64,000 nucleotides of DNA. It comes from an uncultured Nitrospiraceae bacterium. GTDB taxonomy: Bacteria > Nitrospirota > Thermodesulfovibrionia > Thermodesulfovibrionales > SM23-35. The notes under the pieces were generated by a model. The model saw only the letters and a program-made list of their open reading frames with translations. It searched no databases and was not told where the DNA came from. The stretch covers positions 800,001-864,000 of the forward strand of contig CAVSHB010000002.1 in NCBI GenBank assembly GCA_963727775.1, given 5' to 3'. Of the stretch, positions 6,048 through 56,294 are shown piece after piece. The translations under genes were made by a program, and so were the position numbers. The first letter of the stretch is position 1. Each line of letters begins with the position of its first letter.

Positions 6048-7802
6048 ATGGTTCTCGACAAATACTCGCATTTCAAAGAAGAACTTGTAGAGTGTATCAA
6101 CTCTATCCTGACAATCGAAGGCATCACCGGCAGCATCTGTGAAGAAATCAGAGAAAAAATCGAAAATAATGTATTTAACCTTGTTGTTCTTGGACAGTTC
6201 AAGAGGGGCAAGACCACCCTCATAAATGCGCTCCTCGGAGCAGAAATATTGCCTACCGCTGTTGTACCTCTAACATCTATTGCAACAATCCTCACATACG
6301 GCGAGACGTTGAATATCAAAGTATATTTCAACGACGGCAGGGTGCCCGAAATTGAACCGGCGAGCCTCCCACAATATGTTACAGAAAAAGGAAATCCAAG
6401 GAACGAAAAGGATGTGCGGGAAGTCATCATTACCTACCCGTCGTCTTATCTGAAAGACGGTGTAAGGCTGATTGACACTCCCGGCGTCGGCTCCATTTAT
6501 GAACATAATACCGATGTTGCCTATCAGTATCTTCCAAAGTCGGATGCAGCCTTATTCCTCATTTCTGTGGACCAGCCGTTGAGCAAGGCTGAGTTGGATT
6601 TCCTTAAGGACGTAAGAGAGTATTCGAACAGGATATTCTTTCTTCTCAGCAAAGCGGACTACTTCTCCGAGCCTGACCTCCGGGAGTCGATGGAATTTTC
6701 AATGGATGTGCTCACAAAGGCGATGGGGACTGAAGTGCGGATCTTCCCGGTTTCTGCAAAACTTGCCCTTGAAGGGAAGGTTTCAGGCGCCGAAGACCTT
6801 GTCAATAAAAGCCGACTTCCACAATTTTCAGAAGTGCTCAACAATTTCCTTATGGAGGAAAAGGGAAAGATACTGATCATATCGATTGCGAACAATCTGC
6901 TCCGGCTGATCTCTCAGGTGAGGTTCGCACTTGAACTTGAAATGAAATCGCTCTTCACACCCCTTGAGGAACTGCAGGAGAAGATAAAGATCTTCGAAAA
7001 GAAGGAGAAGGATGTCCTGACGGAAAAGGGCGATTTTGACTTGCTGTTGGATGCTGAAGTTAAAAAGATAATCAACAACGTTCTTGAAGAAGACCTCAGG
7101 GTTTTCAGGCAGGAGTTGATTCTTAAAGTATCCGAAATCCTTGAAAGCCGCTACAAAGAGTATTCTGACATGTCTCTGAAGAAGCTTCGGGAGCAGCTTG
7201 AGAAGGAGATTATCACAGAAGTAAAACAGGCGTTTGCATCCTGGCGCATCATCGAAGATGAAAAGCTGGCAAAGACCTTTGAGACGGTCTGCAGGAGGTT
7301 TGTTACAAAGATCGATGAGACGGTGGATTCCCTTCATAAGTTTTCTTCCGAGCTTTTCGCGGTACCCTTTGATGCGGTGAAGGCAGAGGCGCTTTGGTCA
7401 TCGAAGTCCGAGTTTTACTACAGATTCCAGGAACAACCGGTGGGTATTGAGATAGTGACATCGTCGGTGACTTTGTTGCTGCCGAAGTTCATCGGCGAGA
7501 AGATAATCCTAAAGAAGATGAAGGAATACTTGTGTCGGGTTACTGACCTGCACACCGCCAGGGTCGGTTACGACTTTGAAAAGAAGCTGGACAAGGGCAA
7601 ACTCGATTTCAGATGGGAGATGCGCCGCAGGATAGAGGCAACCATCGAAGGGATCAGAACCGCCATAGACAAAGGAATGACTCAAAGATCCGGAGGTGAG
7701 AAGGAGGCGACTGAAAGGAAGAGCCAGGTCTCACATGTTCTTGTCCTGCTTGACGGAATTAAGGAAAAACTGATTCAGATACAGCAAAAGGTTTCTTCTT
7801 AA
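6048..7802 (+). CDS. Bacterial dynamin-like GTPase
   Basis: G1 GQFKRGKTT, G2 LPTAVVPLT, G3 DTPG, G4 SKAD, PVSAK, long helical C-terminus. Confidence 0.88.
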   Translation: MVLDKYSHFKEELVECINSILTIEGITGSICEEIREKIENNVFNLVVLGQFKRGKTTLINALLGAEILPTAVVPLTSIATILTYGETLNIKVYFNDGRVPEIEPASLPQYVTEKGNPRNEKDVREVIITYPSSYLKDGVRLIDTPGVGSIYEHNTDVAYQYLPKSDAALFLISVDQPLSKAELDFLKDVREYSNRIFFLLSKADYFSEPDLRESMEFSMDVLTKAMGTEVRIFPVSAKLALEGKVSGAEDLVNKSRLPQFSEVLNNFLMEEKGKILIISIANNLLRLISQVRFALELEMKSLFTPLEELQEKIKIFEKKEKDVLTEKGDFDLLLDAEVKKIINNVLEEDLRVFRQELILKVSEILESRYKEYSDMSLKKLREQLEKEIITEVKQAFASWRIIEDEKLAKTFETVCRRFVTKIDETVDSLHKFSSELFAVPFDAVKAEALWSSKSEFYYRFQEQPVGIEIVTSSVTLLLPKFIGEKIILKKMKEYLCRVTDLHTARVGYDFEKKLDKGKLDFRWEMRRRIEATIEGIRTAIDKGMTQRSGGEKEATERKSQVSHVLVLLDGIKEKLIQIQQKVSS

Positions 7803-7823
7803 TTCTAAAAAAGAGAAGTTATA

Positions 7824-7880
7824 GAACGATGGAGACCGTTCTTTTAAGTGTCCTGTTATATCAGGTCTGATGACTTCTAC
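7824..7880 (+). ncRNA. Fluoride (crcB) riboswitch 3, divergent variant
   Basis: GAACGATGGAGACCGTTC...CTGATGACTTCTAC; P1 covaried to GAACG/CGTTC; sits upstream of enolase. Confidence 0.72.
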
Positions 7881-7893
7881 GGATAAATCTTAG

Positions 7894-9210
<1,317 letters not shown>

Positions 9211-10762: not shown

Positions 10763-11622
10763 TGGCGGCGGGACGCAGGCTTGGTGTTCATACCTCTATC
10801 GCCGGCGGGTTACACCTAAGCCTGGAAAGGGCTCACGCTCTGGGATGTAATACGTTGCAGATATTTTCCCATAACCCGAGGGGATGGTCTGTGAAGAACA
10901 TTTCTGAAGAAGAAGCCTCCCGGTTTAAATTACTCAGAGAAAAGTTCAATATTTCCCCGGTTTATATCCACACATCTTACCTTATAAATATGGCGTCCGG
11001 AGACGAAGCGCTGAGAAGAAAATCCGTTGAGCTGCTTGCCGTTGAAATGGAAAGGGCTGATTCTATCGGCGCGGATTATGTGATACTTCATGCGGGAAGC
11101 GCATCCGGGGATGAGCGGCGGACCGCAAGGCAAAGGACGGTGGAAGCATTAAATGATCTTGAACTGATGGGACGATGGAAAGCGGGTCTACTCATAGAAA
11201 ATACCTCCGGTAAAAAAGGGGACATCTCCTCGGCTATCTCTGAACTGTCGGATATCATGAACGGCGCCAAAGGTCCGTTGATATCAGGCATATGCTTCGA
11301 CACCTGCCATGCCTTTGCGGCGGGATATGACATCCGCCGCGATGACGGTGTAAAAAGGATTTCAGATGAAATAAGAAGGGATATCGGAGACGGTAAAATA
11401 AAAGCGGTCCACCTTAACGATTCGAAAGGCGACTGCGGTTCGGGCGTCGACAGGCATGAACATATAGGTTTAGGGAAGATAGGGGCGGAAGCGCTAAGCC
11501 GTTTCATTCAATGCAGGCATTTCAAAGACGTCCCTCTGATCCTCGAAACTCCGAAGAAGAGAGAGTCCGATGATCCGATGAATTTGGCGAAAGTCAGGAA
11601 GCTGATGAGAATGAAACGATAG
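10762..11622 (+). CDS. nfo: Endonuclease IV
   Basis: GVHTSIAGG, HTSYLIN, IENT, DTCH, HLNDSK, DRHEHIG, LETP. Confidence 0.95.
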   Translation: MAAGRRLGVHTSIAGGLHLSLERAHALGCNTLQIFSHNPRGWSVKNISEEEASRFKLLREKFNISPVYIHTSYLINMASGDEALRRKSVELLAVEMERADSIGADYVILHAGSASGDERRTARQRTVEALNDLELMGRWKAGLLIENTSGKKGDISSAISELSDIMNGAKGPLISGICFDTCHAFAAGYDIRRDDGVKRISDEIRRDIGDGKIKAVHLNDSKGDCGSGVDRHEHIGLGKIGAEALSRFIQCRHFKDVPLILETPKKRESDDPMNLAKVRKLMRMKR

Positions 11623-11748
11623 TTCAAGAATTGAGAACGACTGTTCTGAATATAGGATCGTTTACAAAAATGCATTATTTGTTCTCAAATGTAATTTTTT
11701 TGTTGACAAATAGAATTTGTTGGTGTATAAATACATTAAGGTGAAAAA

Positions 11749-12294
11749 ATGTTAAAGAGTTTATTCTCATCATCAGTAAGGGCGGATGTGCTCTCGCTGC
11801 TTCTGAACAGCCCCGACGAACAGTTCTATATCCGTGAGATTGCGACACTCCTCAGAAAGAACCCATCAGGCATAAAGAGGGAACTCGATAACCTCGAAAA
11901 GATGGATATTGTGACGAGCGAAAGGATTGTCAACCTCAGATACTTCCAGGCGAATAAGGAGTCACCCCTGTTCTCTGAATTGAAAAATCTGATAACAAAA
12001 TCACTCGGCCTGCCCGGCGCGCTTAAGGCGGTCCTGAGGGCCGCCGGTACGAAGGCGGCTTTTATCTACGGTCCGTATGCTGAGGGGGACGATGTAGACA
12101 GAGTGGATCTTTTTGTTATCGGTGCGTCATCATCACTGACAAAAGAAATCAAGGACCTTGAAAAGAGGTTTGATCAAAAAATTAACTTTGCAATGATGGA
12201 TGAAGAGGAATACAGACTGAAAAAGAAGAAGGGTGATGCAAACCTGAAAAGGCTTTTATCAGGCAAAAGGATAACACTTATCGGCAGATTATAA
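11749..12294 (+). CDS. Winged-helix + nucleotidyltransferase-like protein (degenerate NTase motif)
   Basis: N-terminal LFSSSVRADVL..YIREIA..RELDNL wHTH; YGPYAEG..VDLFVIG; TTGACA-N17-TATAAA at 11703-11731. Confidence 0.75.
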   Translation: MLKSLFSSSVRADVLSLLLNSPDEQFYIREIATLLRKNPSGIKRELDNLEKMDIVTSERIVNLRYFQANKESPLFSELKNLITKSLGLPGALKAVLRAAGTKAAFIYGPYAEGDDVDRVDLFVIGASSSLTKEIKDLEKRFDQKINFAMMDEEEYRLKKKKGDANLKRLLSGKRITLIGRL

Positions 12295-12354
12295 ATGGGT
12301 AAGTGCTCCGCATCTCCTTCACCGGGAGTGCGGATAGAAAGGGGGTGAATTATC

Positions 12355-12414
12355 ATGGCAGCTACAAAGAAAGCAGCGAAGAAGCCGGCAAAGAAGACCG
12401 CAAAAAAGAAATAG
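12355..12414 (+). CDS. 19-aa Lys/Ala-rich micropeptide MAATKKAAKKPAKKTAKKK
   Basis: Strong RBS AAAGGGGGTGA, clean ATG..TAG, terminator downstream; too short for the ORF track. Confidence 0.7.
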   Translation: MAATKKAAKKPAKKTAKKK

Positions 12415-12446
12415 TTTAGATCTACATGCACACACACACATTTTTT

Positions 12447-12478
12447 AGGCTGGAGAGAACTTCTCCAGCCTTCTTTTT
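12447..12478 (+). terminator. Intrinsic terminator, probably bidirectional with lpxC
   Basis: aggctggaga/tctccagcct stem followed by tcttttt. Confidence 0.7.
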
Positions 12479-12556
12479 GCGGTCTTCCTACATATAAAAC
12501 TCTATTCTGCGGAAAAATTCAAGTAAAATTTATAACTTATTGAAAAATAAGCTATT

Positions 12557-13435
12557 TTAAGTAAGCGAAAGGGTTTGCGGCTGGCTGACTTCCGATACCA
12601 ATTCCCAATACTCCGGATGTGAAAACAGCTTTTTCAGGAACTTAAGGTTTGTGGTATGGCCTGACTTATTAGCAATAATATGACCTTGGATAGGAAATCC
12701 TGAGAGAGAAAGGTCGCCGATAAGATCGAGTATTTTATGACGGACAAATTCGTCTTTAAACCTTAATCCCGTGGAATTCAGCACCCCGGTTTCTCCGAGT
12801 ATTATGGCATTATCGAAGGAGCCGCCCCTTGCGAAGCCGTTTGCTTTAAGGTATTCGACGTCTTTCAGAAATCCGAAAGTCCTTGCAGGGGCTATTTCCA
12901 TAGTGAAGCTTTCCTCATTGAGGTCAAGGCTTAACTTTTGCTCACCGAGTAAATGATGGGTAAAGTGGATCCTGTAAGTTATACGCCTGCCGTTATACGG
13001 GAAGGCGGCAATCTCGGCATGGCCATCGGTAAGCACTATAGGGCTTGTAATTCTTATATAAGGTCTCTTTTTGCTCTGTTTTGCGATCCCGCTGTTGAGG
13101 ATCATGCTTGTCAGATCTATTGAACTGCCGTCGAGGATGGGGATTTCGGACCCGTTTACTTCTATAAAGGCGTTATCGATACCGAGTCCTGCCAAAGCGG
13201 CAAGCATGTGTTCAACCGTCCTTATTTTAGCACCGTTGAACCCGATCGTAGTGGCAAATGCCGTATCAGTGACCGAGCCGATGGAAGCCTTAATCGCCAG
13301 GTTCTTGTCTGACCGTATAAATAAGATTCCGGTATCCCGGGGCGCCGGCTTAAGGCATACCTTAGTGTTGCGACCGGTGTGAAGCCCGATACCTTCAAAA
13401 CTTACTTCCTGTTTTAGTGTCCTTTGTAAACGCAT
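12557..13435 (-). CDS. lpxC: UDP-3-O-acyl-GlcNAc deacetylase
   Basis: QRTL..GIGLHTG, TVEH, PILDGSS, APARTFGF, RHKILD, SGH. Confidence 0.97.
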   Translation of the reverse strand: MRLQRTLKQEVSFEGIGLHTGRNTKVCLKPAPRDTGILFIRSDKNLAIKASIGSVTDTAFATTIGFNGAKIRTVEHMLAALAGLGIDNAFIEVNGSEIPILDGSSIDLTSMILNSGIAKQSKKRPYIRITSPIVLTDGHAEIAAFPYNGRRITYRIHFTHHLLGEQKLSLDLNEESFTMEIAPARTFGFLKDVEYLKANGFARGGSFDNAIILGETGVLNSTGLRFKDEFVRHKILDLIGDLSLSGFPIQGHIIANKSGHTTNLKFLKKLFSHPEYWELVSEVSQPQTLSLT

Positions 13436-13843
13436 AGTTTATATAATAAGATTTTGTAAGTAATAAAAAATCTATTTATAGGTTGCAAGTATAATGCCAG
13501 ATAAAAAGGCAAGAATTTTACAGTTATTATTAACAGAGGTTTATTCAGGACAATGGCTCTATAAAAAGTCTTGGCAGTATAAGTTAAAGTGTTTGTTGAA
13601 ATATAATGCAAGACGGCAAACAGAAGGTGTGTTGTCTGTTATCAATGATGTGTGTATTATTTAACACAGTGATAACCCCATTGCCCTCTGATATGTTAAA
13701 ATCGAATTTATAAACTATTTAATTATTAGTACATATATTAGCACAGAACTGCTTATTTGAACCCTTTGCACCTCCCTTTCCGCACTAAGGCAGCTTCGGC
13801 GGGGTGAAAGGGGGAAGGATAGCGGGGTTATGGAGATAATAAA

Positions 13844-14626
13844 ATGCTGGGAATTATAGGCGGGAGCGGCCTCTACGGAGTTGAAGGGTTAGTCATGAAA
13901 AGGGCGAAGAAGATAAAAACGCCCTTTGGCGCGCCATCCGATTCTTATTCTATGGGTGAATTTTCGGGGAAGGACATTATATTTCTTCCAAGACATGGGT
14001 TGAAGCATAAAATTCCCCCCCATAAGATAAATTACAGGGCAAATATATGGGGGTTTAAAAAACTCGGGGTAGAAAGAATCATATCCTTCGGCGCTACCGG
14101 GGGAATAAGCCATGGTATGAAGCCGGGGACGATTGTTGTTCCCGATCAGATCATCGATATGACGAGCGGCAGGGATTCAACCTTCTACTCCGATGAAGGA
14201 GACGTTGTTCATATGGATTTTACAGAGCCGTATTGCCCTGAATTGAGGGCTTCTCTTTTTCGTGCCGGAGAGAGATCGGGAATCAAAGTCAAGAAATCGG
14301 GAACCTATGTGTGTACGAATGGTCCAAGGCTTGAAACCGGGGCCGAGATAAAGTTTTTTTCAGAAATCGACGCGGATATTGTCGGCATGACGGCGATGCC
14401 CGAGGCGGCGCTCGCAAGGGAAGCGGAGCTTTGTTATGCGGGGGTTGCCGTTGTTACAAATTATGCGGCCGGGATTAGGGAAAAGAAACTGACGGCAGCA
14501 GAGGTTATCGACGTGATGAATAAGACCACCGGGAGGCTAAAAGAACTTCTGAAAGCGGTTTTGAGTATGGTACCCTCTGAAAGAAACTGTGCGTGTAAGG
14601 AAGCCCTGGCAAAGGCGAAGGTTTAA
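13844..14626 (+). CDS. mtnP: S-methyl-5'-thioadenosine/thioinosine phosphorylase
   Basis: GIIGGSG, TPFG, PRHG, NYRAN, GPRLET, VGMT..PEA. Confidence 0.9.
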   Translation: MLGIIGGSGLYGVEGLVMKRAKKIKTPFGAPSDSYSMGEFSGKDIIFLPRHGLKHKIPPHKINYRANIWGFKKLGVERIISFGATGGISHGMKPGTIVVPDQIIDMTSGRDSTFYSDEGDVVHMDFTEPYCPELRASLFRAGERSGIKVKKSGTYVCTNGPRLETGAEIKFFSEIDADIVGMTAMPEAALAREAELCYAGVAVVTNYAAGIREKKLTAAEVIDVMNKTTGRLKELLKAVLSMVPSERNCACKEALAKAKV

Positions 14627-14633
14627 GCGGCAT

Positions 14634-16004
14634 ATGGAGACTATCCTTGTTGTAGAAGACAAAGAATCAATGGCGGAGATGCTGAGAGAGACCCTTGAGT
14701 CTGCAGGATATACCGTCATTTCGGCTGTTGACGGACTGGAGGGCATAAGGCATATCAAAGAGAGCAGGGTCGATCTTGTACTGACGGACCTTAAGCTTCC
14801 TAAAAAAGAAGGGATGGATATCCTCAATGCATCCAAAGAAGAAAACCAGGTCAGGCCCGTTATTATTATGACCGCATTCGGTTCTGTTGAGACGGCTGTA
14901 GCTGCAATGAAGGAAGGCGCTTTTGATTTTATTACAAAACCTTTTGATACCGACCACCTCCTTATGCTGATACAGAGAGCCCTGGAAACACTGAGGCTTC
15001 TTACGGAGAACATTCTTTTAAAAGAAGAGTTCGCTTCGAAGTTCGGGCTGCCCAGGATTATCGGTAGGAGTGATAGAATTATTGATGTCGCCCAAGTCGT
15101 GCAAAAGGTGGCGCCCACGAAAACAACTGTCCTTTTGATCGGCGAGAGCGGCACGGGAAAAGAGCTTTTTGCGAGGGCCCTCCATAATCTGAGTAACCGG
15201 AAGCAGTATCCTTTTGTGCCGATCAATTGTGCCGCGATCCCTAAAGACCTGCTTGAATCGGAGCTCTTCGGTCATGAAAAAGGCGCCTTTACGGGCGCGG
15301 AAATGAAGAAACTCGGCAAGTTCGAACTTGCCGATAAGGGGACTATTTTTCTCGACGAAATCGGCGATATGGATATGACATTGCAATCAAAGGTCCTCAG
15401 GGCGATTGAAGAAGGAGAAATAGAGAGGATAGGCGCTGTTAAGGCGATAAAGGTTGACGTAAGAATTGTCGCGGCAAGCAATAAAGACCTTGAAAAAGCT
15501 GTAGAAGATAAGAAATTCAGAGAAGACCTCTTTTACAGGCTGAATGTGTTCCCAATCAGGATCCCTCCTTTGAGGGAGAGGAAGGAAGACATTCCTTTGC
15601 TCGTGGATTACTTTATCAATAAATATCGCGTCGAGATAAAGACTACTGTGAAAAGTATTTCAGCAAAGGCTTTGGATATGCTTATGAAGTATTACTGGAA
15701 GGGCAATGTAAGGGAACTTGAAAACGCCATAGAGCGGGCGGTCATACTGTGTGACGGTGAGGTGATTACGTCCGACCATTTTATTCCCGGCAGGCAGTAC
15801 GGATATCAGTCTTCTGAAAAATCTTTCATTAATGAAGGCGCGCTCGAAGCTGTGGCAAAAGAGGCAACGAGGACCGCGGAGACCCAAAGGATCACGAATG
15901 TCCTTAAGGATACGAGGGGCAATAAAAGCAGGGCGGCGGAGATCCTTCAGGTGAGCTACAAAACATTGCTTACAAAGATCAAGGAGTACGGCATTGAGTC
16001 TTGA
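14634..16004 (+). CDS. Sigma-54-dependent response regulator (NtrC/AtoC family)
   Basis: REC domain, GESGTGKE, GAFTGA, FLDEIG, WKGNVREL, Fis HTH; ATG at 14634. Confidence 0.95.
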   Translation: METILVVEDKESMAEMLRETLESAGYTVISAVDGLEGIRHIKESRVDLVLTDLKLPKKEGMDILNASKEENQVRPVIIMTAFGSVETAVAAMKEGAFDFITKPFDTDHLLMLIQRALETLRLLTENILLKEEFASKFGLPRIIGRSDRIIDVAQVVQKVAPTKTTVLLIGESGTGKELFARALHNLSNRKQYPFVPINCAAIPKDLLESELFGHEKGAFTGAEMKKLGKFELADKGTIFLDEIGDMDMTLQSKVLRAIEEGEIERIGAVKAIKVDVRIVAASNKDLEKAVEDKKFREDLFYRLNVFPIRIPPLRERKEDIPLLVDYFINKYRVEIKTTVKSISAKALDMLMKYYWKGNVRELENAIERAVILCDGEVITSDHFIPGRQYGYQSSEKSFINEGALEAVAKEATRTAETQRITNVLKDTRGNKSRAAEILQVSYKTLLTKIKEYGIES

Positions 16005-43307: not shown

Positions 43308-43650
43308 TAACTAAGACAATTATTTATTAGTAATAGCCTACGTCCAGTCGTCAGTCTGTTATTCCGGGCCCGTCTGCTCACCTCAATGACCGGGCCGCAC
43401 GCAGGCGGAGCTGCCCCCAAACAATGCTCAAATGGCCCGCTACTGTCTATGAGTATTTCGATATACTCAAACTTTTATCCTTAATGAGTTACTATCAATT
43501 TCTCACATCTGACAGGAAAGAGTATTACGAGAACAGGGTTAAGTTCTATTGATACCTAAAGACTGTATACGGATTGTTTTAGAACTTTCATCTTCTCCTT
43601 TAAATTTCTCTTTATTTTTTAGATTGTTATTCCCATAATCTCAGTATTGA

Positions 43651-43875
43651 TTGACTATAGTGAATAAGTTTACTCTTGCTCAATCTATCTTCGACAGGCT
43701 GGTTGAGATTAATAGACTGGGCACAAGCGTAGTACTTGTCGAGCAGAACACGCGTATGGCCCTTGAAATTGCTCACAGGGGTTATGTTTCTAAGATCGGT
43801 GGAATTTTCACGGAAGACACGGGCCAAAACCTTCTTGAAAACGTCAAAATTAAAAAGGTATTTTTAGGTAGTTGA
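43651..43875 (+). pseudogene. C-terminal remnant of a LivF-type ABC ATPase
   Basis: IFDRLVEIN..VVLVEQN..ALEIAHRGYV..FLG; no Walker A. Confidence 0.75.
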
Positions 43876-43882
43876 GCGGTAT

Positions 43883-45316
43883 ATGAAGAAGGATAGAGAA
43901 CACAGAATGAAAAAGATAAAACTTTTCATGGCATCTCCAAGTGATACCTCTGAAGAAAGAAAAGCATTTGCAGCAGTAATTAATTCGATAAACCGTAGCA
44001 GAGCAGAGAAAGAAGGTTATCACCTGGATCCAGTTTTGTGGGAAGAATATGCATATCCAGAAGCCGAAAATCCCCAAGCAATCATCAATAAGCTTCTTGA
44101 TGACGCTGAACTGGTGATAGTTATATTCTGGAACAAGTTTGGTGCTCCGACTAAGAAGTTTCCCTCCGGTACAATGGAAGAACTCTTTCTGGTATTAAAT
44201 AAGAGAAAGACGACTGGTTCTCCCTCAATAAAAATATATTTCAGAACCCCTCTTCCTCCAAAGAGTACACATGACGTTGAAGAGCTAAGAAGAATATTTG
44301 AGATCAAGGAATCGATAAAAGAGGTAGCTTTTTATAAGAAATACAATACAGTTGAAGAGTTTAAGAGTTTACTTTACGAACACATCAATGCATGGCTTTC
44401 CGATTATGGAGGGAATCACTCAAAAAAGAAACAAAATGGTAAGAAAAAGATGATCAAACCGGCGTTGAGGGAGCCCTCTAATTGCAAAGAAGTAATAAAA
44501 GGTGTTTTCGTCAAAGTAGAAAAGAAATTTGACGGAGAAAAGTCCAGCATTAACTTTGGGTTTGAAGACTTAGATGACTTAATTGGAGAGATTGAAGATA
44601 TAAACCTTTTAGTTGTTGGTGGTGACATAGCGTCCGGTAAAACATCCTTAATGCTTGCTTTGGCTTACAATACCGCAGTTATAAATCGCGTTCCAACTTT
44701 GTATTTCACTACCCGTTCTAACAAGGAAGACATCGGTCGCATCCTATTATGTAGCATATCTCAAATGAATATAGATCATTTTAAGAAAGGCTTTGTGAAA
44801 AGGGATGATTGGCATAGGTTGACGCAATATGCCAGTAAACTTATTGACGCGCCACTTTTTTTTGATGATAATCCTGAAATGTCAGTTGACGAAATAAGGG
44901 AGCAAGTAGTTGGTCTGAAAAGAAAGAACCAGATGGGACTCATTATTATTGACGAGGTGAACTATCTCATATCTGAAAAGACAAAAACAGGTAAAAAGCT
45001 TAGACTTTTATCAAGAGACCTTCAAATACCAATAGTTGCCACGGCTTATTTAGAAATTCCTAAACGCTGTCCCCGCTCACCAGTCTTAAGTGACATGGAC
45101 GGGATAGGGGATTTAAAAAAAGAAGCTGATACGATCTTATTCTCTGATAGACCGCAGCATGTTTTCTCCGGCCTCAGCAGAGACACCGTAGAGATCATAA
45201 TTGCAAAGAACAAGAATGGGCCATCAGGTTTGGTATTAAGAAAGTATTATCTACCGGAATATTGCAGTTTTGGTGGCGACGTTCGAGATGATGATAGGGA
45301 TCGGGAATCATTCTAA
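43883..45316 (+). CDS. DUF4062 (TIR/NDT-like) domain fused to a degenerate DnaB helicase C-terminal domain
   Basis: N-terminus KLFMASPSD..EER..WE..PQ..IN..FW..FG.PT..SGTMEE; C-terminus GFEDLDDL, SGKTS, DWHRL, IIAKNKNGP. Confidence 0.8.
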   Translation: MKKDREHRMKKIKLFMASPSDTSEERKAFAAVINSINRSRAEKEGYHLDPVLWEEYAYPEAENPQAIINKLLDDAELVIVIFWNKFGAPTKKFPSGTMEELFLVLNKRKTTGSPSIKIYFRTPLPPKSTHDVEELRRIFEIKESIKEVAFYKKYNTVEEFKSLLYEHINAWLSDYGGNHSKKKQNGKKKMIKPALREPSNCKEVIKGVFVKVEKKFDGEKSSINFGFEDLDDLIGEIEDINLLVVGGDIASGKTSLMLALAYNTAVINRVPTLYFTTRSNKEDIGRILLCSISQMNIDHFKKGFVKRDDWHRLTQYASKLIDAPLFFDDNPEMSVDEIREQVVGLKRKNQMGLIIIDEVNYLISEKTKTGKKLRLLSRDLQIPIVATAYLEIPKRCPRSPVLSDMDGIGDLKKEADTILFSDRPQHVFSGLSRDTVEIIIAKNKNGPSGLVLRKYYLPEYCSFGGDVRDDDRDRESF

Positions 45317-45319
45317 CAG

Positions 45320-45552
45320 ATGATTGAACGCGATTTTGATATCCCTTTTATTGCCAATCTCTCTCTGAGAGAAAAGCAAATCCAGCAGAATTATCGCCCC
45401 GTTATTGCTGTTCATAAATGGTTTGCGAGGCGTCCGGGAACGCTCTTCCGTGGATTGATCTTATCGGAGTTTGCCTCAAAGCCTCTGCGGGAATCTTTTT
45501 ATGTCGGTAACGAGTTCCCCGGATTGCGCGTGGCGGATCCGTTCATGGGCGG
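45320..45552 (+). pseudogene. N-terminal fragment of a DUF1156-type DNA methyltransferase
   Basis: REKQIQQNYRP..VHKWFARRP and VADPFMGG, then the sequence switches to liv-like. Confidence 0.75.
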
Positions 45553-45730
45553 AGTCGGAAGCATAATATGCGCAGCGCTGGGCAACTTCCTCATCGCCTT
45601 TGCCCATAACTTCGGGGTCCGGAAGATATCTTCCCAGTAGCAGGACGCTATCGTCTTTCTCGTCCTTCTTGTCTTCCGCCTTTAGGCCCTACGGCTCTTT
45701 CGGAAAGAGATCAGAAAGGCGGAGGTGTAA
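45547..45730 (+). pseudogene. C-terminal remnant of a LivH-type branched-chain ABC permease
   Basis: GGVGSI..AALG..LI..NFG..ISSQ*QDAIVFLVLL with in-frame stops. Confidence 0.6.
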
Positions 45731-45807
45731 CGGATGACTTTCGGGGGCCGACGTTATATAATGAGAGCAGAAAGTAAGCATTATTAGATTGACAGGGGGT
45801 GAGATGC

Positions 45808-46002
45808 ATGAAACTGAGAGTAGTGGTTGAGCCGGATGAGGATGTATATGTAGCGTATTGCCCTGAATTACCTGGGTGTGTGACATACGGCAAGACAGAA
45901 GAAGAAGCCCGAAAGAATATAATGGAAGCGCTGGAACTCTATTTAAGACCCTCAAAAGAAGAGTTGGCAAAAGATGCGAAAGTTTATGAGGTTGCAGTTT
46001 AG
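45808..46002 (+). CDS. HicB-family antitoxin
   Basis: YVAYCPELPGCVTYGKTEEEARKNIMEALELY. Confidence 0.92.
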   Translation: MKLRVVVEPDEDVYVAYCPELPGCVTYGKTEEEARKNIMEALELYLRPSKEELAKDAKVYEVAV

Positions 46003-46021
46003 TGGGGGAAAGACAGCCTAG

Positions 46022-47724
46022 GAGTCTGTCGGACTTGAATTGCTGTTTTTGACAGCGGTTGGAATCCGAGAGAGTCGATTGTAGTTATTTTTCATGATTT
46101 GATCGTCTGTCATCGGTTCTTTCCTGCCGGTGTTTTGTTGGATACATTATGCCATCGCCATTTTCAGGCGCCTACCTGGCTGTTCCTCAATGCATGCAGC
46201 CTTTTGATGTTCCATGCAATGCAGATCATATCCCACTCGCCATTGACTGCAGTAAAACCACGCAACAGGAATCGGTCAAATCCCATAGCTGCCTTGATTA
46301 CCCCAAACGCCGGCTCCACAGTACTCTTGCGTATCGCATAAATTGCCTTACCGGCAACTGTCTTCAACCGATGTTTCATTCTTGTCACTGCATCAGCATC
46401 AACCGGCAATGGAGGCGGTTCGACGAATCGCTCCCATAAAGGCTGATTATGACTCTGCCGATCTACTGCTATATATGGCTCTATTCCTTTGCTCTCACAT
46501 TCTTGCACATTTGCTTCGCTGTAATACCCGCTGTCGGCTATTATAGTTTTTACTTTGCCAAGTTGTTCGGGCAGATATGTAAGCGCTTCAAGCGCTGGTT
46601 TCATCTGCTGTTTGTCATTGGATTGTTGTGTTACATGCGTTGCGACAATAAGCATTGTTTCTGTATCCACGGCTGCTTGAGCATTATAAGCCTGCTTGAA
46701 TCCTCCACCCGATGCCGGCATTATGCGAGATTCTTCATCGGTCAGATTGACCTGATCTTTGTCAGTTGGCCCGGCTGCAGGCGGCTTGGGTCCTTTGCCT
46801 CGGGGTTTCTTGCCGCTCTGCTTTTGTTTGGCTACACGCTCTGCCTGTTTCTTTTCACTGTCGGCTTGTTCCATTGCATGCCGCTCTGCCGCACGGCGCT
46901 CTATCTCAGCTTTTGCTTCAGCTATCATTTTCAGCCGCTTCTCTCGCCGCTCCAGCTCTTCCGGGATGTTCATGCCGTCAGGAATGTCAGCTTTGTCAGC
47001 AGCCTCAGCTTTCTTCATCAGTTCCGCCACTTCCACTTTCAACTTATTCTCTATTTTGCATGCATGCCCGTAGCTCAACGCCTTGTGCTTTGAGGCATTG
47101 GCTTTCATTTTGGTCCCATCCAAGCTGACCGTGCCTAACTTCAATACCCCGGTTTCTGCTGCTATCATTAGTATCTGCACAAACAGTTCTTTCAGCTTAG
47201 GCAAAAACCGACGTCGAAAGGTTGCTATTGTGTCATGGTCAGGGTGACTGTTGGCTGCCACATACCGGAATGCTACAGAGTCGTACGTGCTACGCTCTAA
47301 TTGCCTGCTCGAAAAGACTCCCGTCGCATATCCGTAAAATAATAATGCCACCAGCATCTCAGGGCTGTATGCCTCACTGCCTCGTCCTGCATAATCATTT
47401 TTCAACCGGTCAAGATTAAGCTGATCCACTATCTCTACGACAAATCTCGCCAAGTGACCCTCGGGCAACCATTCCTGCACCGACGGCGGAAATAAATATA
47501 TCGTCTCTCTGTCACATTGTTTGAACATTATGCTGATCTCCTGTTGTTCATTCTTATGCCGCTTGTCTATTATGCCATAAGGAACGCCCATGCAGGTCTG
47601 TCGGACTTAGATAATTACAGGCCGAAAAGATTTCTGCTGCCCAGTTTGCAATAAAGGTTCTTAAGAGACTGCCGTGTCCTTCAAGAAGTAAACTTTTCAG
47701 AAATGTTGAAAGTCCGACAGACTC
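46022..47724 (-). mobile_element. IS1182-family insertion sequence
   Basis: Inverted ends gagtctgtcggactt; CTAG duplication at 46018-46021 and 47725-47728. Confidence 0.9.
46164..47528 (-). CDS. IS1182-family transposase
   Basis: WLPEGHLARF, PDHDTI, LDGTKMKANAS, NLTDEESR, YNAQ, ADSGY, VEPAFG; AGGAG RBS before MFKQ. Confidence 0.92.
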   Translation of the reverse strand: MFKQCDRETIYLFPPSVQEWLPEGHLARFVVEIVDQLNLDRLKNDYAGRGSEAYSPEMLVALLFYGYATGVFSSRQLERSTYDSVAFRYVAANSHPDHDTIATFRRRFLPKLKELFVQILMIAAETGVLKLGTVSLDGTKMKANASKHKALSYGHACKIENKLKVEVAELMKKAEAADKADIPDGMNIPEELERREKRLKMIAEAKAEIERRAAERHAMEQADSEKKQAERVAKQKQSGKKPRGKGPKPPAAGPTDKDQVNLTDEESRIMPASGGGFKQAYNAQAAVDTETMLIVATHVTQQSNDKQQMKPALEALTYLPEQLGKVKTIIADSGYYSEANVQECESKGIEPYIAVDRQSHNQPLWERFVEPPPLPVDADAVTRMKHRLKTVAGKAIYAIRKSTVEPAFGVIKAAMGFDRFLLRGFTAVNGEWDMICIAWNIKRLHALRNSQVGA

Positions 47725-48088
47725 CTAGTGTCACTGCCGATGAGATCATAAGGGTTTTGAAGTCACTTGGATTCGAAAAAGTAGATCAGTCAGGCAGTCA
47801 TCAAAAGTGGAAACATCCTTTAACCGGCAAGCAGACGATAGTGGCCTATCATTCGGGAGAAATAATCAGGCCCAAGACATTCAAGAAAATTCTTGAAGGC
47901 GCTGGATTGACCGTAGATGATTTTATTGCAATCAGAAAGAAACTATGAGATATAGAGTGCTCATCGGGGTTGTGTTTTGAAATATAAGATTTGCCCGTGA
48001 AGACTTTGTACCTTGACTGACAAATTGACAAGGTGTTGAGTTTCTTTTATTATAGCCTTAAATATAAGCATGTTATTTAAAAGTACTT

Positions 48089-48370
48089 ATGACGCGAGAA
48101 TCGATTATAGAATCTATCAAGAATACCCTCAAAAGGTACGGCATCACCAAAGCATACCTCTTTGGCAGCTTTGCCCGGCTGGACGACGACTACCATGACA
48201 TAGACGTCGCAATCGAGCCGCCACAGGGCAAATTCTCCCTGTTTGATCTTGTCGGCGTAGAACAGGAGCTTGAGGATCTAACAGGCCAGAAGGTCGACGT
48301 GGTTATCTATCGCGCTCTTAACCCTCGTATTAGGAGCTATGTTGACCAAGACCTTGTGCCGATATTATGA
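48089..48370 (+). CDS. Minimal nucleotidyltransferase (MntA-type antitoxin)
   Basis: LFGSFAR..DIDV, LEDLTGQKVDV; TTGACA-N17-TATTAT at 48025-48053. Confidence 0.9.
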   Translation: MTRESIIESIKNTLKRYGITKAYLFGSFARLDDDYHDIDVAIEPPQGKFSLFDLVGVEQELEDLTGQKVDVVIYRALNPRIRSYVDQDLVPIL

Positions 48371-48426
48371 CAGCCGGAAAAGACGATCTTGTCTATATAG
48401 AGGACATGCTGTCGGCGATAGATTAA
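48367..48426 (+). pseudogene. Truncated HEPN/DUF86 toxin (N-terminus only)
   Basis: ATGA overlap with the MNT stop; MTAGKDDLVYIEDMLSAID* resembles DUF86 N-termini. Confidence 0.6.
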
Positions 48427-48443
48427 TCATTAAATTCCGACAA

Positions 48444-48502
48444 ATGATCGAACGAGCTTATGACATACCTTTATTGCCAATCTCGCCTCAGAGAAAAGTA
48501 AA
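48444..48502 (+). pseudogene. Second, frameshifted copy of the DUF1156 gene 5' end
   Basis: atgatcgaacg..tgacatacctttattgccaatctc..agagaaaag matches the sequence starting at 45320. Confidence 0.65.
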
Positions 48503-48584
48503 GAACTTCACACGCCCGTGCAGATTTCTAAAACTGAAGCCACTGAGTTAAAATATATAAAATGTGGACAAAGGGGGTGAAGTC

Positions 48585-48797
48585 ATGCGTTATAGAATTC
48601 TCATAGAGCAAGACGAAGACGGGATGTTTATCGCAGAATGTCCTTCTCTTCCCGGATGTGTTTCTCAGGGTAAAACGCGGAAAGAAGCTTTGGAAAATAT
48701 TCAAGACGCCATGAAAGGGTATGTCGAGAGTTTGAAGAAGCATAACGAGCCTATTCCTCCTCCGATTGAAGAAGAGATCGTAGAGGTGGCTGTTTGA
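48585..48797 (+). CDS. HicB-family antitoxin
   Basis: IEQDEDGMFIAECPSLPGCVSQGKTRKEALENIQDA. Confidence 0.93.
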   Translation: MRYRILIEQDEDGMFIAECPSLPGCVSQGKTRKEALENIQDAMKGYVESLKKHNEPIPPPIEEEIVEVAV

Positions 48798-48883
48798 GTA
48801 AATTACCAATTGTTTCGGGCCAAGAGCTTTGCCAAGTTGGCTTAACGACGGAAGAGTTGAAAGATTTAATTGAAATCGTATAA
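48794..48883 (+). pseudogene. HicA toxin with internal deletion
   Basis: MSKLPIVSGQELC joined directly to QVGLTTEELKDL; GSH catalytic core absent. Confidence 0.75.
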
Positions 48884-48997
48884 CCAACGAAGTTAAGCAT
48901 TTTTTGTCATTAATTTCTTTTTGATTTGCCTATTTCCTGATTGAAATAATATGATGAATGAATTAGAATACATAAGAATAAATATGAAAGAAGGTGA

Positions 48998-49246
48998 ATG
49001 ATTGTGCCAAAAACCATAACACTGCGATTGCGCGATGAAGTGTATGAGAAATTGAATCGCGCCGCTATGGAGGACAACAGGAGCATAGCGAATCTGATTG
49101 AGACACTCGCCATAGAAAAGCTCGAAGAAGAATCGCTGGCTGATGACTTTGAGATGGAGGAAATAGTTTCCAACGCCGCCTTGCTGAAAAAGCTCGACAA
49201 AGGCCACAGACAGGCTGCACAGAGGAAAGGCAGACTGGTTGGTTAG
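48998..49246 (+). CDS. CopG/RHH antitoxin
   Basis: KTITLRL..NRSIANLIE; overlaps the toxin start. Confidence 0.85.
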   Translation: MIVPKTITLRLRDEVYEKLNRAAMEDNRSIANLIETLAIEKLEEESLADDFEMEEIVSNAALLKKLDKGHRQAAQRKGRLVG

Positions 49247-49520
49247 ATACAGGATCTTTGAGACTGAGCAGTTTCTTGAGGACCTATCAGATAGCTTTGG
49301 ATCGCACGGTGAGCGTATAAGGAAGAAACTTTCAGAATATGTCTATCCTCAATTGAGAAACTCCCCGTATTTTGGTAAACACATCAAAAAGCTGAAGAAT
49401 TATAAGCCTGAGACCTGGAGATACAGGGTCGGTAATTACCGTTTTTTTTACGAAATCGATGAAACGGAGCATATCGTCTATATGATCGTTGCGGAGTCGC
49501 GCAAGGACAGTTACAGATAA
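49239..49520 (+). CDS. RelE/ParE-family toxin
   Basis: IKKLK..WRYRVGNYRFFYEID..RKDSY. Confidence 0.9.
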   Translation: MVRYRIFETEQFLEDLSDSFGSHGERIRKKLSEYVYPQLRNSPYFGKHIKKLKNYKPETWRYRVGNYRFFYEIDETEHIVYMIVAESRKDSYR

Positions 49521-49678
49521 CGGTCTGATCATTTCGTCAAATCAGCCTTTCCAGTACAATATCCAGGGACACCCCCATATTAAATGACATTAAGACTGTT
49601 ATTCTGAAAGCCCCTCAGGAATATTCTCCTGCCCGAAGAGCTTCCGAAAATTCTTTCCGTTGAAACAACCACCCTTTC

Positions 49679-49708
49679 TTGACAGCTGCATTGCAATGCA
49701 TTACAATG
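49679..49708 (+). promoter_or_regulatory. vapBC promoter with tandem palindromic operator
   Basis: TTGACA-N17-TACAAT overlapped by CATTGCAATG-CATTACAATG. Confidence 0.7.
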
Positions 49709-49737
49709 AATTATCTTGTAATAGGAGGGTAAATAGC

Positions 49738-49995
49738 ATGAACTCTCAACTAACAGTCAGATTGCCTGATAACCTTGAAAAAGGTATCTCGATGATCGCC
49801 AAAAAGCTTCATTTAAAGCGGGCTGATATCGTCAGAATGGCATTAGAGAGATTTGTTAAACAAGCTGAGGGGGGAGACGAGAGTAGCCCGTATGATAGGG
49901 TAAAGAGCCTTCTTGGAAGTGTTTCGAGCGGCATCTCCGACCTCGGGGAGTCACACCGGGAGCACCTCTTGAGGAAAATGAAGCGGCATGCGTAG
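49738..49995 (+). CDS. RHH antitoxin (VapB-like)
   Basis: QLTVRLP..RADIVRMAL, GSVSSGISDL; AGGAGG RBS. Confidence 0.85.
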   Translation: MNSQLTVRLPDNLEKGISMIAKKLHLKRADIVRMALERFVKQAEGGDESSPYDRVKSLLGSVSSGISDLGESHREHLLRKMKRHA

Positions 49996-50401
49996 CTTGC
50001 TGTTTGATACCGGCGCATTTGTCGCGTTGCTTGATAAAAGCGAAAAGAATCACGAGCGTTGCGTTGCCTTTTTAAAAGAGTTTAAAGGTAAGCTTTTCAC
50101 CACGGAACCGGTACTCACAGAGACCCTTTATCTGCTCGGACCATCAATAAAAGCTCAGCGGGTTTGCATTGACTTTATATTGAAAGGCGGAGCAACTTTG
50201 ATCCCCCAAGCAAAGGAAAGTTTATCTCGCGCATCTGCACTCATGGAAAAGTATGAGGACATCCCGATGGATTTTGCAGATGCTACCCTCGTGTCCCTCG
50301 CTGAAGAGATAGATGGAGTCGAGATACTCACTCTTGATCGGAGAGGTTTTAGTGCTTACCGTATTCGCGGGAAGACAGCATTTAAAATCTGGCCGGAGTA
50401 G
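49988..50401 (+). CDS. PIN-domain toxin (VapC)
   Basis: FDTG, VLTE, MDFADA, TLDRRGF. Confidence 0.92.
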   Translation: MRSLLFDTGAFVALLDKSEKNHERCVAFLKEFKGKLFTTEPVLTETLYLLGPSIKAQRVCIDFILKGGATLIPQAKESLSRASALMEKYEDIPMDFADATLVSLAEEIDGVEILTLDRRGFSAYRIRGKTAFKIWPE

Positions 50402-50414
50402 GTGGCACTGATTT

Positions 50415-54920: not shown

Positions 54921-56294
54921 ATGAAAAGCGCAGAAGTACAGCTCGATAAGCTGCCGCCCCAGAACCTGGAGGCAGAGCAATCCATTCTCGGTGCGGTCCT
55001 CATAGATAACGATGCGCTGCCGAAAGCATTGGAGATCCTCGACCCCGAAGATTTCTATAAGCTGTCCCACAGAAAAATATTCAATGCAATGTCGGACCTT
55101 TTCGAGAAAAATGAAGCGATAGACCTAATAACACTGACGGACTGCCTGAAAAAGAAGGACGATCTGGAAACCGTCGGCGGTGTATCTTATCTCTCATCTC
55201 TGGTCAATATGACCCCGACTGCTGCAAATATAAAATATCATTCGCACATCGTAAGGGAAAGGGCTTTGCTGAGGGGGCTTTTAAGGTCTGCGAATGAGAT
55301 TGCAGGCAAGGTCTATGAAGAAAGTCTTGACGCAGAGGATCTCGTTGATTTTGCGGAGAGATCAATCTTCGATATATCCGACAAAAGAATTAAAGCTTCA
55401 TTTGTGACCTTAAAAGAGGTCATTAAAGACAGCTTTGAGATGATAGAACGTCTCTATGACAAAAAGGAATCTGTAACAGGAGTGCCTTCAGGTTTCAAGG
55501 ACCTTGATGACCTTACGACAGGGTTCCAAAAAGGTGATCTGGTCGTAATAGGCGGAAGGCCTTCGATGGGGAAAACGGCGTTCTCGCTTAATGTCGCCCA
55601 GTATGTCGGGCTTGAAATGAAAGAGCCGGTTGCGATATTCAGCCTTGAAATGTCAAAGGAACAGCTTGCTTTAAGAATGTTGTGTTCCGAAGCGAAGGTA
55701 AATTCGAACAGCATCAGAAAAGGGTTTATAAAAAAAGAGGACTGGCATAAACTGACGAGCGCGGCAAGCAACCTTACAAGCGCGCCGATTTTTATCGATG
55801 ATTCATCCGCTATTACAGTCCTTGAACTGAGGGCAAAGGCAAGACGGCTAAAAATGGAACATGGCCTCAGCCTTATTATTGTGGACTACCTGCAGTTGAT
55901 GAAAGGTAAGGGAAGTTTTGAAAGGCGTGAACAGGAGATATCCGATATATCCCGCTCTCTTAAAGCGCTGGCAAAAGAGCTGAGCGTGCCTGTTATTGCC
56001 GTCAGCCAGCTCAACAGGAGCGTTGAGTCGCGCAAACCTCCGAAGCCCATGTTGGCGGACCTGAGGGAATCAGGGGCTATTGAGCAGGATGCGGATGTTA
56101 TCCTTTTTCTTTACAGGGATGAAGTTTATAATAAGGACAATCCTGCCAATAAGGGAAAAGCGGAAGTTGACATTGCCAAGCAAAGAAACGGTCCTGCCGG
56201 AGTAACAGTCCATTTGGCGTATATCTCGAGCTGCACAAGGTTTATGAACATGGCGGACAGGGAGTATGGGGATATGGAGGAGGAAGCGTTTTGA
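54921..56294 (+). CDS. dnaB: Replicative DNA helicase
   Basis: PPQNLEAEQS, GRPSMGKT, FSLEM, DYLQL, SQLNR, DLRESGAIEQDAD, KQRNGP. Confidence 0.98.
   Translation: MKSAEVQLDKLPPQNLEAEQSILGAVLIDNDALPKALEILDPEDFYKLSHRKIFNAMSDLFEKNEAIDLITLTDCLKKKDDLETVGGVSYLSSLVNMTPTAANIKYHSHIVRERALLRGLLRSANEIAGKVYEESLDAEDLVDFAERSIFDISDKRIKASFVTLKEVIKDSFEMIERLYDKKESVTGVPSGFKDLDDLTTGFQKGDLVVIGGRPSMGKTAFSLNVAQYVGLEMKEPVAIFSLEMSKEQLALRMLCSEAKVNSNSIRKGFIKKEDWHKLTSAASNLTSAPIFIDDSSAITVLELRAKARRLKMEHGLSLIIVDYLQLMKGKGSFERREQEISDISRSLKALAKELSVPVIAVSQLNRSVESRKPPKPMLADLRESGAIEQDADVILFLYRDEVYNKDNPANKGKAEVDIAKQRNGPAGVTVHLAYISSCTRFMNMADREYGDMEEEAF

Follow-up and report, generated by a model that had tools for sequence, protein, structure and literature searches.

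Our analysis identifies, in a stretch of 64,000 nucleotides of bacterial DNA (the window), an intact gene that fuses a DUF4062 domain to a DnaB C-terminal domain stripped of its catalytic residues, and it makes a defence function of the product, as an anti-phage NADase, probable. A more tentative proposal concerns the trigger: the protein may be a one-gene abortive-infection NADase whose dead helicase domain serves as bait for phage loaders or inhibitors of DnaB, binding to which is predicted. Seen across phyla, bacteria might repeatedly have copied their own helicase, removed its catalysis and fused it to a NADase, so building integrated decoys that sense hijacked host replication; we advance this with equal reserve.

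The open reading frame of 477 aa (43883-45316, forward strand) is intact, as the preliminary description had stated, and Pfam found both of the parts named there: DnaB_C at residues 223-453 (E 8e-40), and DUF4062 at residues 14-100 (E 8e-5), the latter with 23.2 bits slightly below the cut-off of 24.7. The N-terminal primase-binding domain is, as described, absent from the fusion in Pfam searches and present in the canonical DnaB at 54921. BLASTP aligned the C-half of the fusion to this DnaB with 32% identity over 278 columns (E 2e-45). Walker A GKT is retained in the alignment, and all the motif swaps listed earlier are there: FSLEM to FTTRS, SQLNR to AYLEI, LRESGAIEQD to MDGIGDLKKE and KQR to KNK. 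An AlphaFold2 model of the whole fusion (pLDDT 75) consists of two domains and a low-confidence linker, and resembles DnaB structures in the PDB. Translation starts at Met1 or Met9, the latter being the N-terminus in most relatives. The gene has a GC content of 38% versus 45% for the genome; promoter-like sites numbered 9, against 5.5 +/- 2.3 in shuffles. All features are listed in Table 1.

Table 1. Features of the fusion gene and its surroundings (positions in the window).
Feature	Position	Strand	Basis or remark
Whole fusion gene: DUF4062/NIR domain, linker, degenerate DnaB C-terminal domain	43883..45316	+	477 aa, start Met1 or Met9 (43907)
DUF4062 (NIR) TIR-like domain, residues 9-178, predicted NADase	43907..44416	+	Pfam; PADLOC PDC-S60 N-terminus; model; hhalign
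Glu100 of SGTMEE, predicted catalytic residue	44180..44182	+	alignment
Lys-rich low-confidence linker, residues 179-200	44417..44482	+	pLDDT <50
Linker helix (LH) equivalent, residues 201-216	44483..44530	+	helix in model; corresponds to E. coli DnaB 182-199
Walker A loop GDIASGKT, residues 247-254, Lys253 retained	44621..44644	+	GKT invariant
Arg278 at catalytic Glu position (host Glu243, E. coli Glu262)	44714..44716	+	Glu in 0/18 family members vs 141/142 canonical DnaBs
Docking helix (DH) equivalent, residues 307-321, Trp310 (E. coli Trp294)	44801..44845	+	Trp 18/18; among best-kept segments
KNK replacing KQR finger motif: Lys retained, Arg gone	45206..45214	+	Arg in 1/17 family members vs 141/142 canonical
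DUF1156-type DNA methylase gene, 5' remnant	45320..45552	+	DNA likeness to intact methylase
Variable cargo between emrA-like and emrB-like genes: fusion, methylase remnant, IS, toxin-antitoxin genes	43308..50414	.	interval comparison among family loci
Canonical DnaB, the genome's only other DnaB-like gene	54921..56294	+	Pfam, genome search

DUF4062, renamed NIR, is a TIR-like NADase of anti-phage systems (10.64898/2026.05.01.722283, 10.64898/2026.09.04.749371, 10.64898/2026.06.25.731849). It requires a Glu at about position 97-108 (10.64898/2026.05.01.722283, 10.64898/2026.09.04.749371) and hydrolyses NAD+ via this Glu once the sensor assembles on a phage protein (10.64898/2026.05.01.722283). 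For the N-domain of the window protein, hhalign gave 92% to a DUF4062 protein scoring over the Pfam cut-off, and a 90%-identical remnant in another locus (L043) itself scores 25.9 bits. PADLOC matched the N-part to the candidate system PDC-S60 (E 3e-31), solely over positions 3-182 of a 906-position model. Modelled alone, the domain forms five strands alternating with helices (pLDDT 85); a PDB sequence search with it returned no genuine match. The preliminary description had singled out a Glu in SGTMEE; the likely catalytic residue is the second of this motif, Glu100. In one alignment this position is Glu in 22/22 DUF4062 fusions and 87/88 TIR fusions, and it also matches the Glu found in a DUF4062-NACHT protein above the cut-off. 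These comparisons point to an effector of the TIR-like NADase family with its catalytic Glu in place, from which we infer NADase activity.

A homology search returned 48 matches, 18 covering both domains at 37-78% identity and the remaining 30 the DnaB part only. Selection was estimated on intact genes, with dS near saturation and the values therefore rough: dN/dS was 0.13-0.25 for the DnaB half in five pairs and 0.06-0.18 for the N-domain in four of the five. The DnaB half is thus under purifying selection, though not for enzymatic function. A conserved family with this architecture and without neutral decay of its helicase part, as had been presumed, is thus borne out by the two-domain relatives and these ratios. 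Distribution is patchy: among 390 class genomes the gene is whole in four, reduced to its N-part in one and internally deleted in one. A near-identical copy (L001, 8001-8783; C-part 94%) has an in-frame deletion spanning Glu100 through Walker A, and the dN/dS of the deleted copy is 0.57-1.2, on few changes. Two close relatives are broken, G160 by an in-frame deletion and G162 down to an N-domain-only remnant, and might speak for a chance fusion in decay. Against this stand 14 intact relatives (43-74% identity over at least 93% of the length), dN/dS well below 1 and the same architecture in more than 100 further proteins, so that decay is highly improbable and largely refuted by the family data. 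Viral contigs contained no window-type fusion and gave seven N-domain-only matches to a TIR-fusion query. No plasmid record covered 80% of the window protein, and one covered 80% of the TIR-fusion query; no phage record did the latter.

The fusion gene lies between emrA-like and emrB-like genes, a pair that in 29 family loci is at most 270 nt apart in 18, at most 1.1 kb in one, separated by other sequence in eight, and in loci ending too soon in two. This interval is an insertion hot spot (window 43308-50414; L043; L057-L085) whose toxin-antitoxin/AbiE-like cargo (by eye) varies between genomes; the G162 remnant, flanked by a Schlafen gene and an AbiE pair, occupies this interval as well. Upstream of the fusion, a 74-aa ORF (43651-43875) without Pfam match looks by eye like the tail of a LivF-like ABC ATPase. 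As for the setting proposed earlier, a methylase start in a toxin-antitoxin island, the toxin-antitoxin genes are there and the DUF1156 gene is present only as a cut 5' remnant: DNA similarity with the gene for the intact 735-aa methylase in L001 stops near 45552. There follow HicB, a DDE transposase, HicA, a nucleotidyltransferase, HicB, RHH+ParE and RHH+PIN genes. A 1.7-kb insertion sequence (about 46018-47728), which the genome carries in roughly a dozen near-identical copies, lies between hicB and hicA and may split the pair.

The defence-type neighbourhoods anticipated for homologs were found in six of eight other distinct flanked loci, counting genes within three of the fusion (a raw count). 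L001 has its intact methylase and a likely nuclease (read by eye) behind the deleted copy, L006 has a type IIG fragment nearby, and in L041 a TIR gene, three Mrr nucleases and DUF4062-NACHT share one island. L043 is also counted, and the neighbours at L042 and L040 are the candidates PDC-S05 and PDC-S01, i.e. candidate models only. L002 and L008 have no defence-type gene within three genes. The island of L041 also contains a fusion of TIR with a LacI-type periplasmic-binding fold (6848-8164) and a dCTP deaminase closing a four-gene run without Pfam or PADLOC match (11530-15719). The toxin-antitoxin genes around the fusion in the window, the plain housekeeping surroundings of some loci, the DciA of the host and the frequency of stand-alone degenerate DnaB domains could all be read as signs of a module unrelated to phage, be it for addiction, plasmid exclusion or replication stress, with DciA or other replication proteins of the host as its input. 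We regard this as rather improbable: no partner gene common to the scanned loci was found, and all tested DUF4062 proteins in the bacterial work of three preprints, as far as these were accessible, acted against phage (10.64898/2026.05.01.722283, 10.64898/2026.09.04.749371, 10.64898/2026.06.25.731849).

The pairing of effector and dead helicase is not confined to DUF4062. A search of 1.8 billion representatives yielded, within its best 150 matches, four fusions with DUF4062, all distant, and three with TIR. A profile search for the latter gave 120 proteins, including two short members, 4 TIR-only proteins and 11 canonical DnaBs, the last two groups being excluded; new here are the 103 TIR-domain proteins (TIR_2 + DnaB_C) with the same kind of dead DnaB domain. 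Source names include Marinobacter, Pseudoalteromonas, Burkholderiales, Ca. Electrothrix, Syntrophomonas and Nitrospirota, among others, and the Atlas independently holds a TIR-DnaB_C cluster of 62 members. Two of 401 phylum genomes encode the TIR fusion. One copy has integrases and genes for type I restriction, Ppl and Mrr as its neighbours. The second adjoins an HNH gene, with no PADLOC match among seven neighbours. One protein (P0248) combines a TIR-pseudo-DnaB fusion with a C-terminal DUF3775 domain. A search with P0061 added 20 DUF4062 and five TIR fusions whose C-domains have a mean identity of 61% to Chloroflexota-named DnaBs (most rows are without source name) and 29% to the window family.

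In a 36-row tree the Chloroflexota fusions cluster with Chloroflexota DnaBs (SH-aLRT 100), DUF4062 and TIR effectors interleave within this clade, and the AU test rejects a tree in which all fusions form one clade (p 1e-5). A single origin had at first received 97/86; it was lost without the motif columns and rejected after the Chloroflexota DnaBs were added, and we take the earlier joining of all fusions as probable attraction by shared loss. A shared origin of the window lineage and the wide TIR family has an AU p of 0.82. By these trees the helicase-effector pairing has arisen at least two times in bacteria, and the Chloroflexota lineage made its fusion from its own DnaB, with either effector. 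The C-half of the window protein as a recent copy of the DnaB gene at 54921 was likewise rejected, the window family never nesting among class DnaBs.

Several related proteins were seen along the way. Degenerate DnaB C-domains of 290-360 aa that stand alone are many and scattered in the tree (P0082, P0090, P0091, P0122, P0162, P0182, P0184, P0187 and P0196 among them); fragments may account for part of them, while a role as free decoy or regulator is possible for others. P0065, P0089 and P0055 comprise two full-length DnaB paralogues with N-domain but without the catalytic Glu and one protein with tandem degenerate DnaB_C domains. In P0172, DnaB_C follows a long N-terminal region, primase-like by eye, in which Pfam found no match.

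The same two catalytic residues have disappeared in every lineage. The catalytic Glu, present in 141/142 canonical DnaBs, occurs in 0/18 members of the window family, 3/105 TIR fusions and 0/25 Chloroflexota fusions; the Arg finger, again in 141/142 canonical DnaBs, occurs in 1/17, 23/103 and 0/21, respectively. Split by effector, the Chloroflexota fusions have Glu and Arg in 0/20 and 0/16 (DUF4062) and in 0/5 and 0/5 (TIR), against 89/89 for both in canonical rows. A DnaB N-terminal domain was found in 0/127 fusions and in 0/25 Chloroflexota fusions. The finger Lys and the subunit-contact helices are retained across all lineages. DNA-binding motifs of DnaB are the least conserved parts, which is why sensing of ssDNA through the DnaB loops was rejected.

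The nucleotide-binding site has fared differently among lineages: the Walker A Lys is present in 18/18 of the window family, 25/25 Chloroflexota fusions and 61/105 of the wide TIR family, the Walker B Asp is almost invariant, and Arg replaces the catalytic Glu in 83% of the window family. A defence NADase could accordingly use a dead RecA-type domain that binds nucleotide without hydrolysis and reports infection-changed pools, its helices serving self-assembly only. The constant Walker A Lys of two lineages, the Walker B Asp and the Glu-to-Arg change all suit such a sensor, a dCTP deaminase adjoins one locus, and Vesta is proposed to sense degradation products (10.64898/2026.09.04.749371, as far as accessible). 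We nevertheless hold it to be distinctly unlikely, given the many TIR-family members without the Walker A Lys and the retention in that family of the surface patch contacted by lambda P. Many simpler nucleotide-binding folds would presumably suffice; repeated use of DnaB would therefore indicate a DnaB-specific surface.

Such a surface may be the linker/docking-helix module. In published structures the loaders DciA, DnaC and lambda P engage this module on two neighbouring DnaB subunits, and binding of lambda P shears the module (PMC9912922, 10.1101/2022.12.30.522210). Expressed as a ratio to real DnaBs, agreement of the docking helix with the canonical consensus is 1.16 in the window family and 0.98 in TIR fusions. 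The corresponding ratios of the whole domain are 0.51 and 0.59, and two other helices lie at 0.36-0.49. The docking-helix Trp occurs in 100% of the window family, 87% of TIR fusions and 75% of canonical rows. Retention was further assessed by shifted masks in E. coli numbering, corrected for column conservation and repeated with independently chosen reference sets. LH+DH was equalled by 6-7 of 276-277 shifted masks in the window family and by 11 of 276-277 in the TIR family (raw shift counts, with several segments compared). The Chloroflexota lineage showed no enrichment of LH+DH (96/277; DH 41/277), nor did the four distant DUF4062 fusions show a clear one (52/276). The second lambda P patch is retained in the TIR family (equalled by 7-8/277 shifted masks) and not in the window lineage, where 194 and 229 of the 276-277 shifts reach its score. 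Judged from sequence, linker and docking helices thus seem to be the best-kept part in two of three lineages. Self-assembly alone could conserve these helices, as the module is a normal subunit contact too.

On the decoy reading, which we prefer, the fusion protein would form dimers or rings via the linker/docking-helix module. A phage loader or inhibitor would dock on these helices of the dead domain and thereby reshape or cluster the subunits. The NADase domains, about 35 residues ahead of the linker helix, would then reach an active arrangement, NAD+ would drop and the infected cell would stop. The effector occupies the place of the DnaB N-domain and precedes the linker helix by a stretch of constant size (Trp171-to-Phe209 spacing of 31-38 aa in 18/18 rows). 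Recurrent origin from the host helicase, recurrent catalytic loss and exchange of effectors are expected of a sensor module, and the effector swap together with the independent Chloroflexota origin favours a sensor role. The integrated decoy of the preliminary description is therefore upheld in part: the family, selection, the effector Glu, defence neighbourhoods and retention of the loader-binding helices speak for it, and the loss of the second lambda P patch here, together with a search of 390 class genomes that found no member of the lambda P family, against it. The SPP1 G39P family likewise had 0/390, with a control that was also without any match. Binders of host DnaB exist beyond lambda P, as the phage inhibitor Ped1 exemplifies (PMC13728149). 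A further point against the decoy is DciA, which the host genome encodes and which uses the same DnaB module; the bait would have to disregard or tolerate this loader.

The same retained contacts allow another defence scenario, in which the dead domain acts as a false subunit, co-assembling with phage DnaB-type helicases or phage-seized host rings that would cluster the NADases. Besides the subunit-contact helices and finger Lys kept in all lineages, it could draw on the identity of 61% between the Chloroflexota form and the DnaBs of its own group, on the Atlas, where the nearest feature matches of the C-domain are viral DnaB_C-only proteins, and on Avs20, known to be triggered by phage helicases (PMC13581612). 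Mixing with host DnaB would, however, be expected to poison replication in uninfected cells, and identity between the window lineage and class DnaBs is only about 34%; we consider a false subunit unlikely.

Should the decoy step be confirmed, this type of sensor would represent a new strategy in bacterial immunity. If the domain is bait, an essential replication protein would be guarded by a disabled copy wired to a kill switch and built repeatedly from host DnaB, and the fusion could serve as a reporter for discovering unknown phage proteins that load or inhibit the helicase. As the TIR form has members in Gammaproteobacteria, E. coli and phage lambda offer a way to test the idea. The fusions are often annotated as 'replicative DNA helicase' in public sources and may have been overlooked because of these labels.

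No named system with this architecture was known to the preliminary description, and our literature searches, with most subscription papers lying outside them, found none either: no paper on a DUF4062+DnaB or TIR-DnaB-like defence fusion appeared, nor one under the name PDC-S60. 'DnaB' and 'helicase' occur nowhere in the main texts of the three DUF4062 preprints, whose figures and supplements chart auxiliary domains and might show the fusion. The effector is already known; the DnaB-derived sensor is without description in the searched literature.

Among known systems, as far as their sources were accessible, Swarozyc is similar in being a single gene with N-terminal DUF4062, a catalytic Glu near position 100 and a C-terminal sensor, and is activated by assembly on a phage protein; its sensor is a HTH/winged portal-binding domain, whereas the C-half of the window fusion is DnaB_C (10.64898/2026.05.01.722283). 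Vulcan, Vesta and NIR-Avs2, too, combine a modular NADase effector, NIR/DUF4062, with differing sensors, but what accompanies it there are HEAT repeats, a partner phosphatase or a STAND-TPR module (10.64898/2026.09.04.749371). The C-terminal HEAT repeats of Vulcan are absent from the window fusion (Pfam, model), and the Vesta set-up, a small NIR protein plus an alkaline phosphatase gene, has no counterpart among the neighbours of the 477-aa fusion in the window or in the scanned loci. Evangelion is likewise a one-gene DUF4062 defence, tied to phage replication and recombination functions; it has a short unannotated auxiliary region with no helicase domain described in the main text, where the window fusion has a DnaB_C domain of 270 aa (10.64898/2026.06.25.731849). 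Avs20 detects the helicase step of phage replication, but as a STAND receptor binding a phage RecA-type fold, whereas in the window fusion a helicase-derived domain is the proposed sensor (PMC13581612). An Avs/NLR-like STAND NTPase with repeat sensor is absent from the window fusion (Pfam, PADLOC). PDC-S60 has the N-terminal domain in common with it; the rest of the model is unmatched. With the DnaB helicase it shares a RecA-type C-domain, Walker A and the linker and docking helices, but not the N-domain, catalytic Glu, Arg finger or DNA-binding motifs. In the integrated decoys of plant NLRs, a host target of pathogen proteins has been copied into an immune protein and has lost its own activity. 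The window fusion, if our reading is true, would belong to a decoy class parallel to these plant receptors, yet it is bacterial and without NLR core, and its bait would drive the effector directly.
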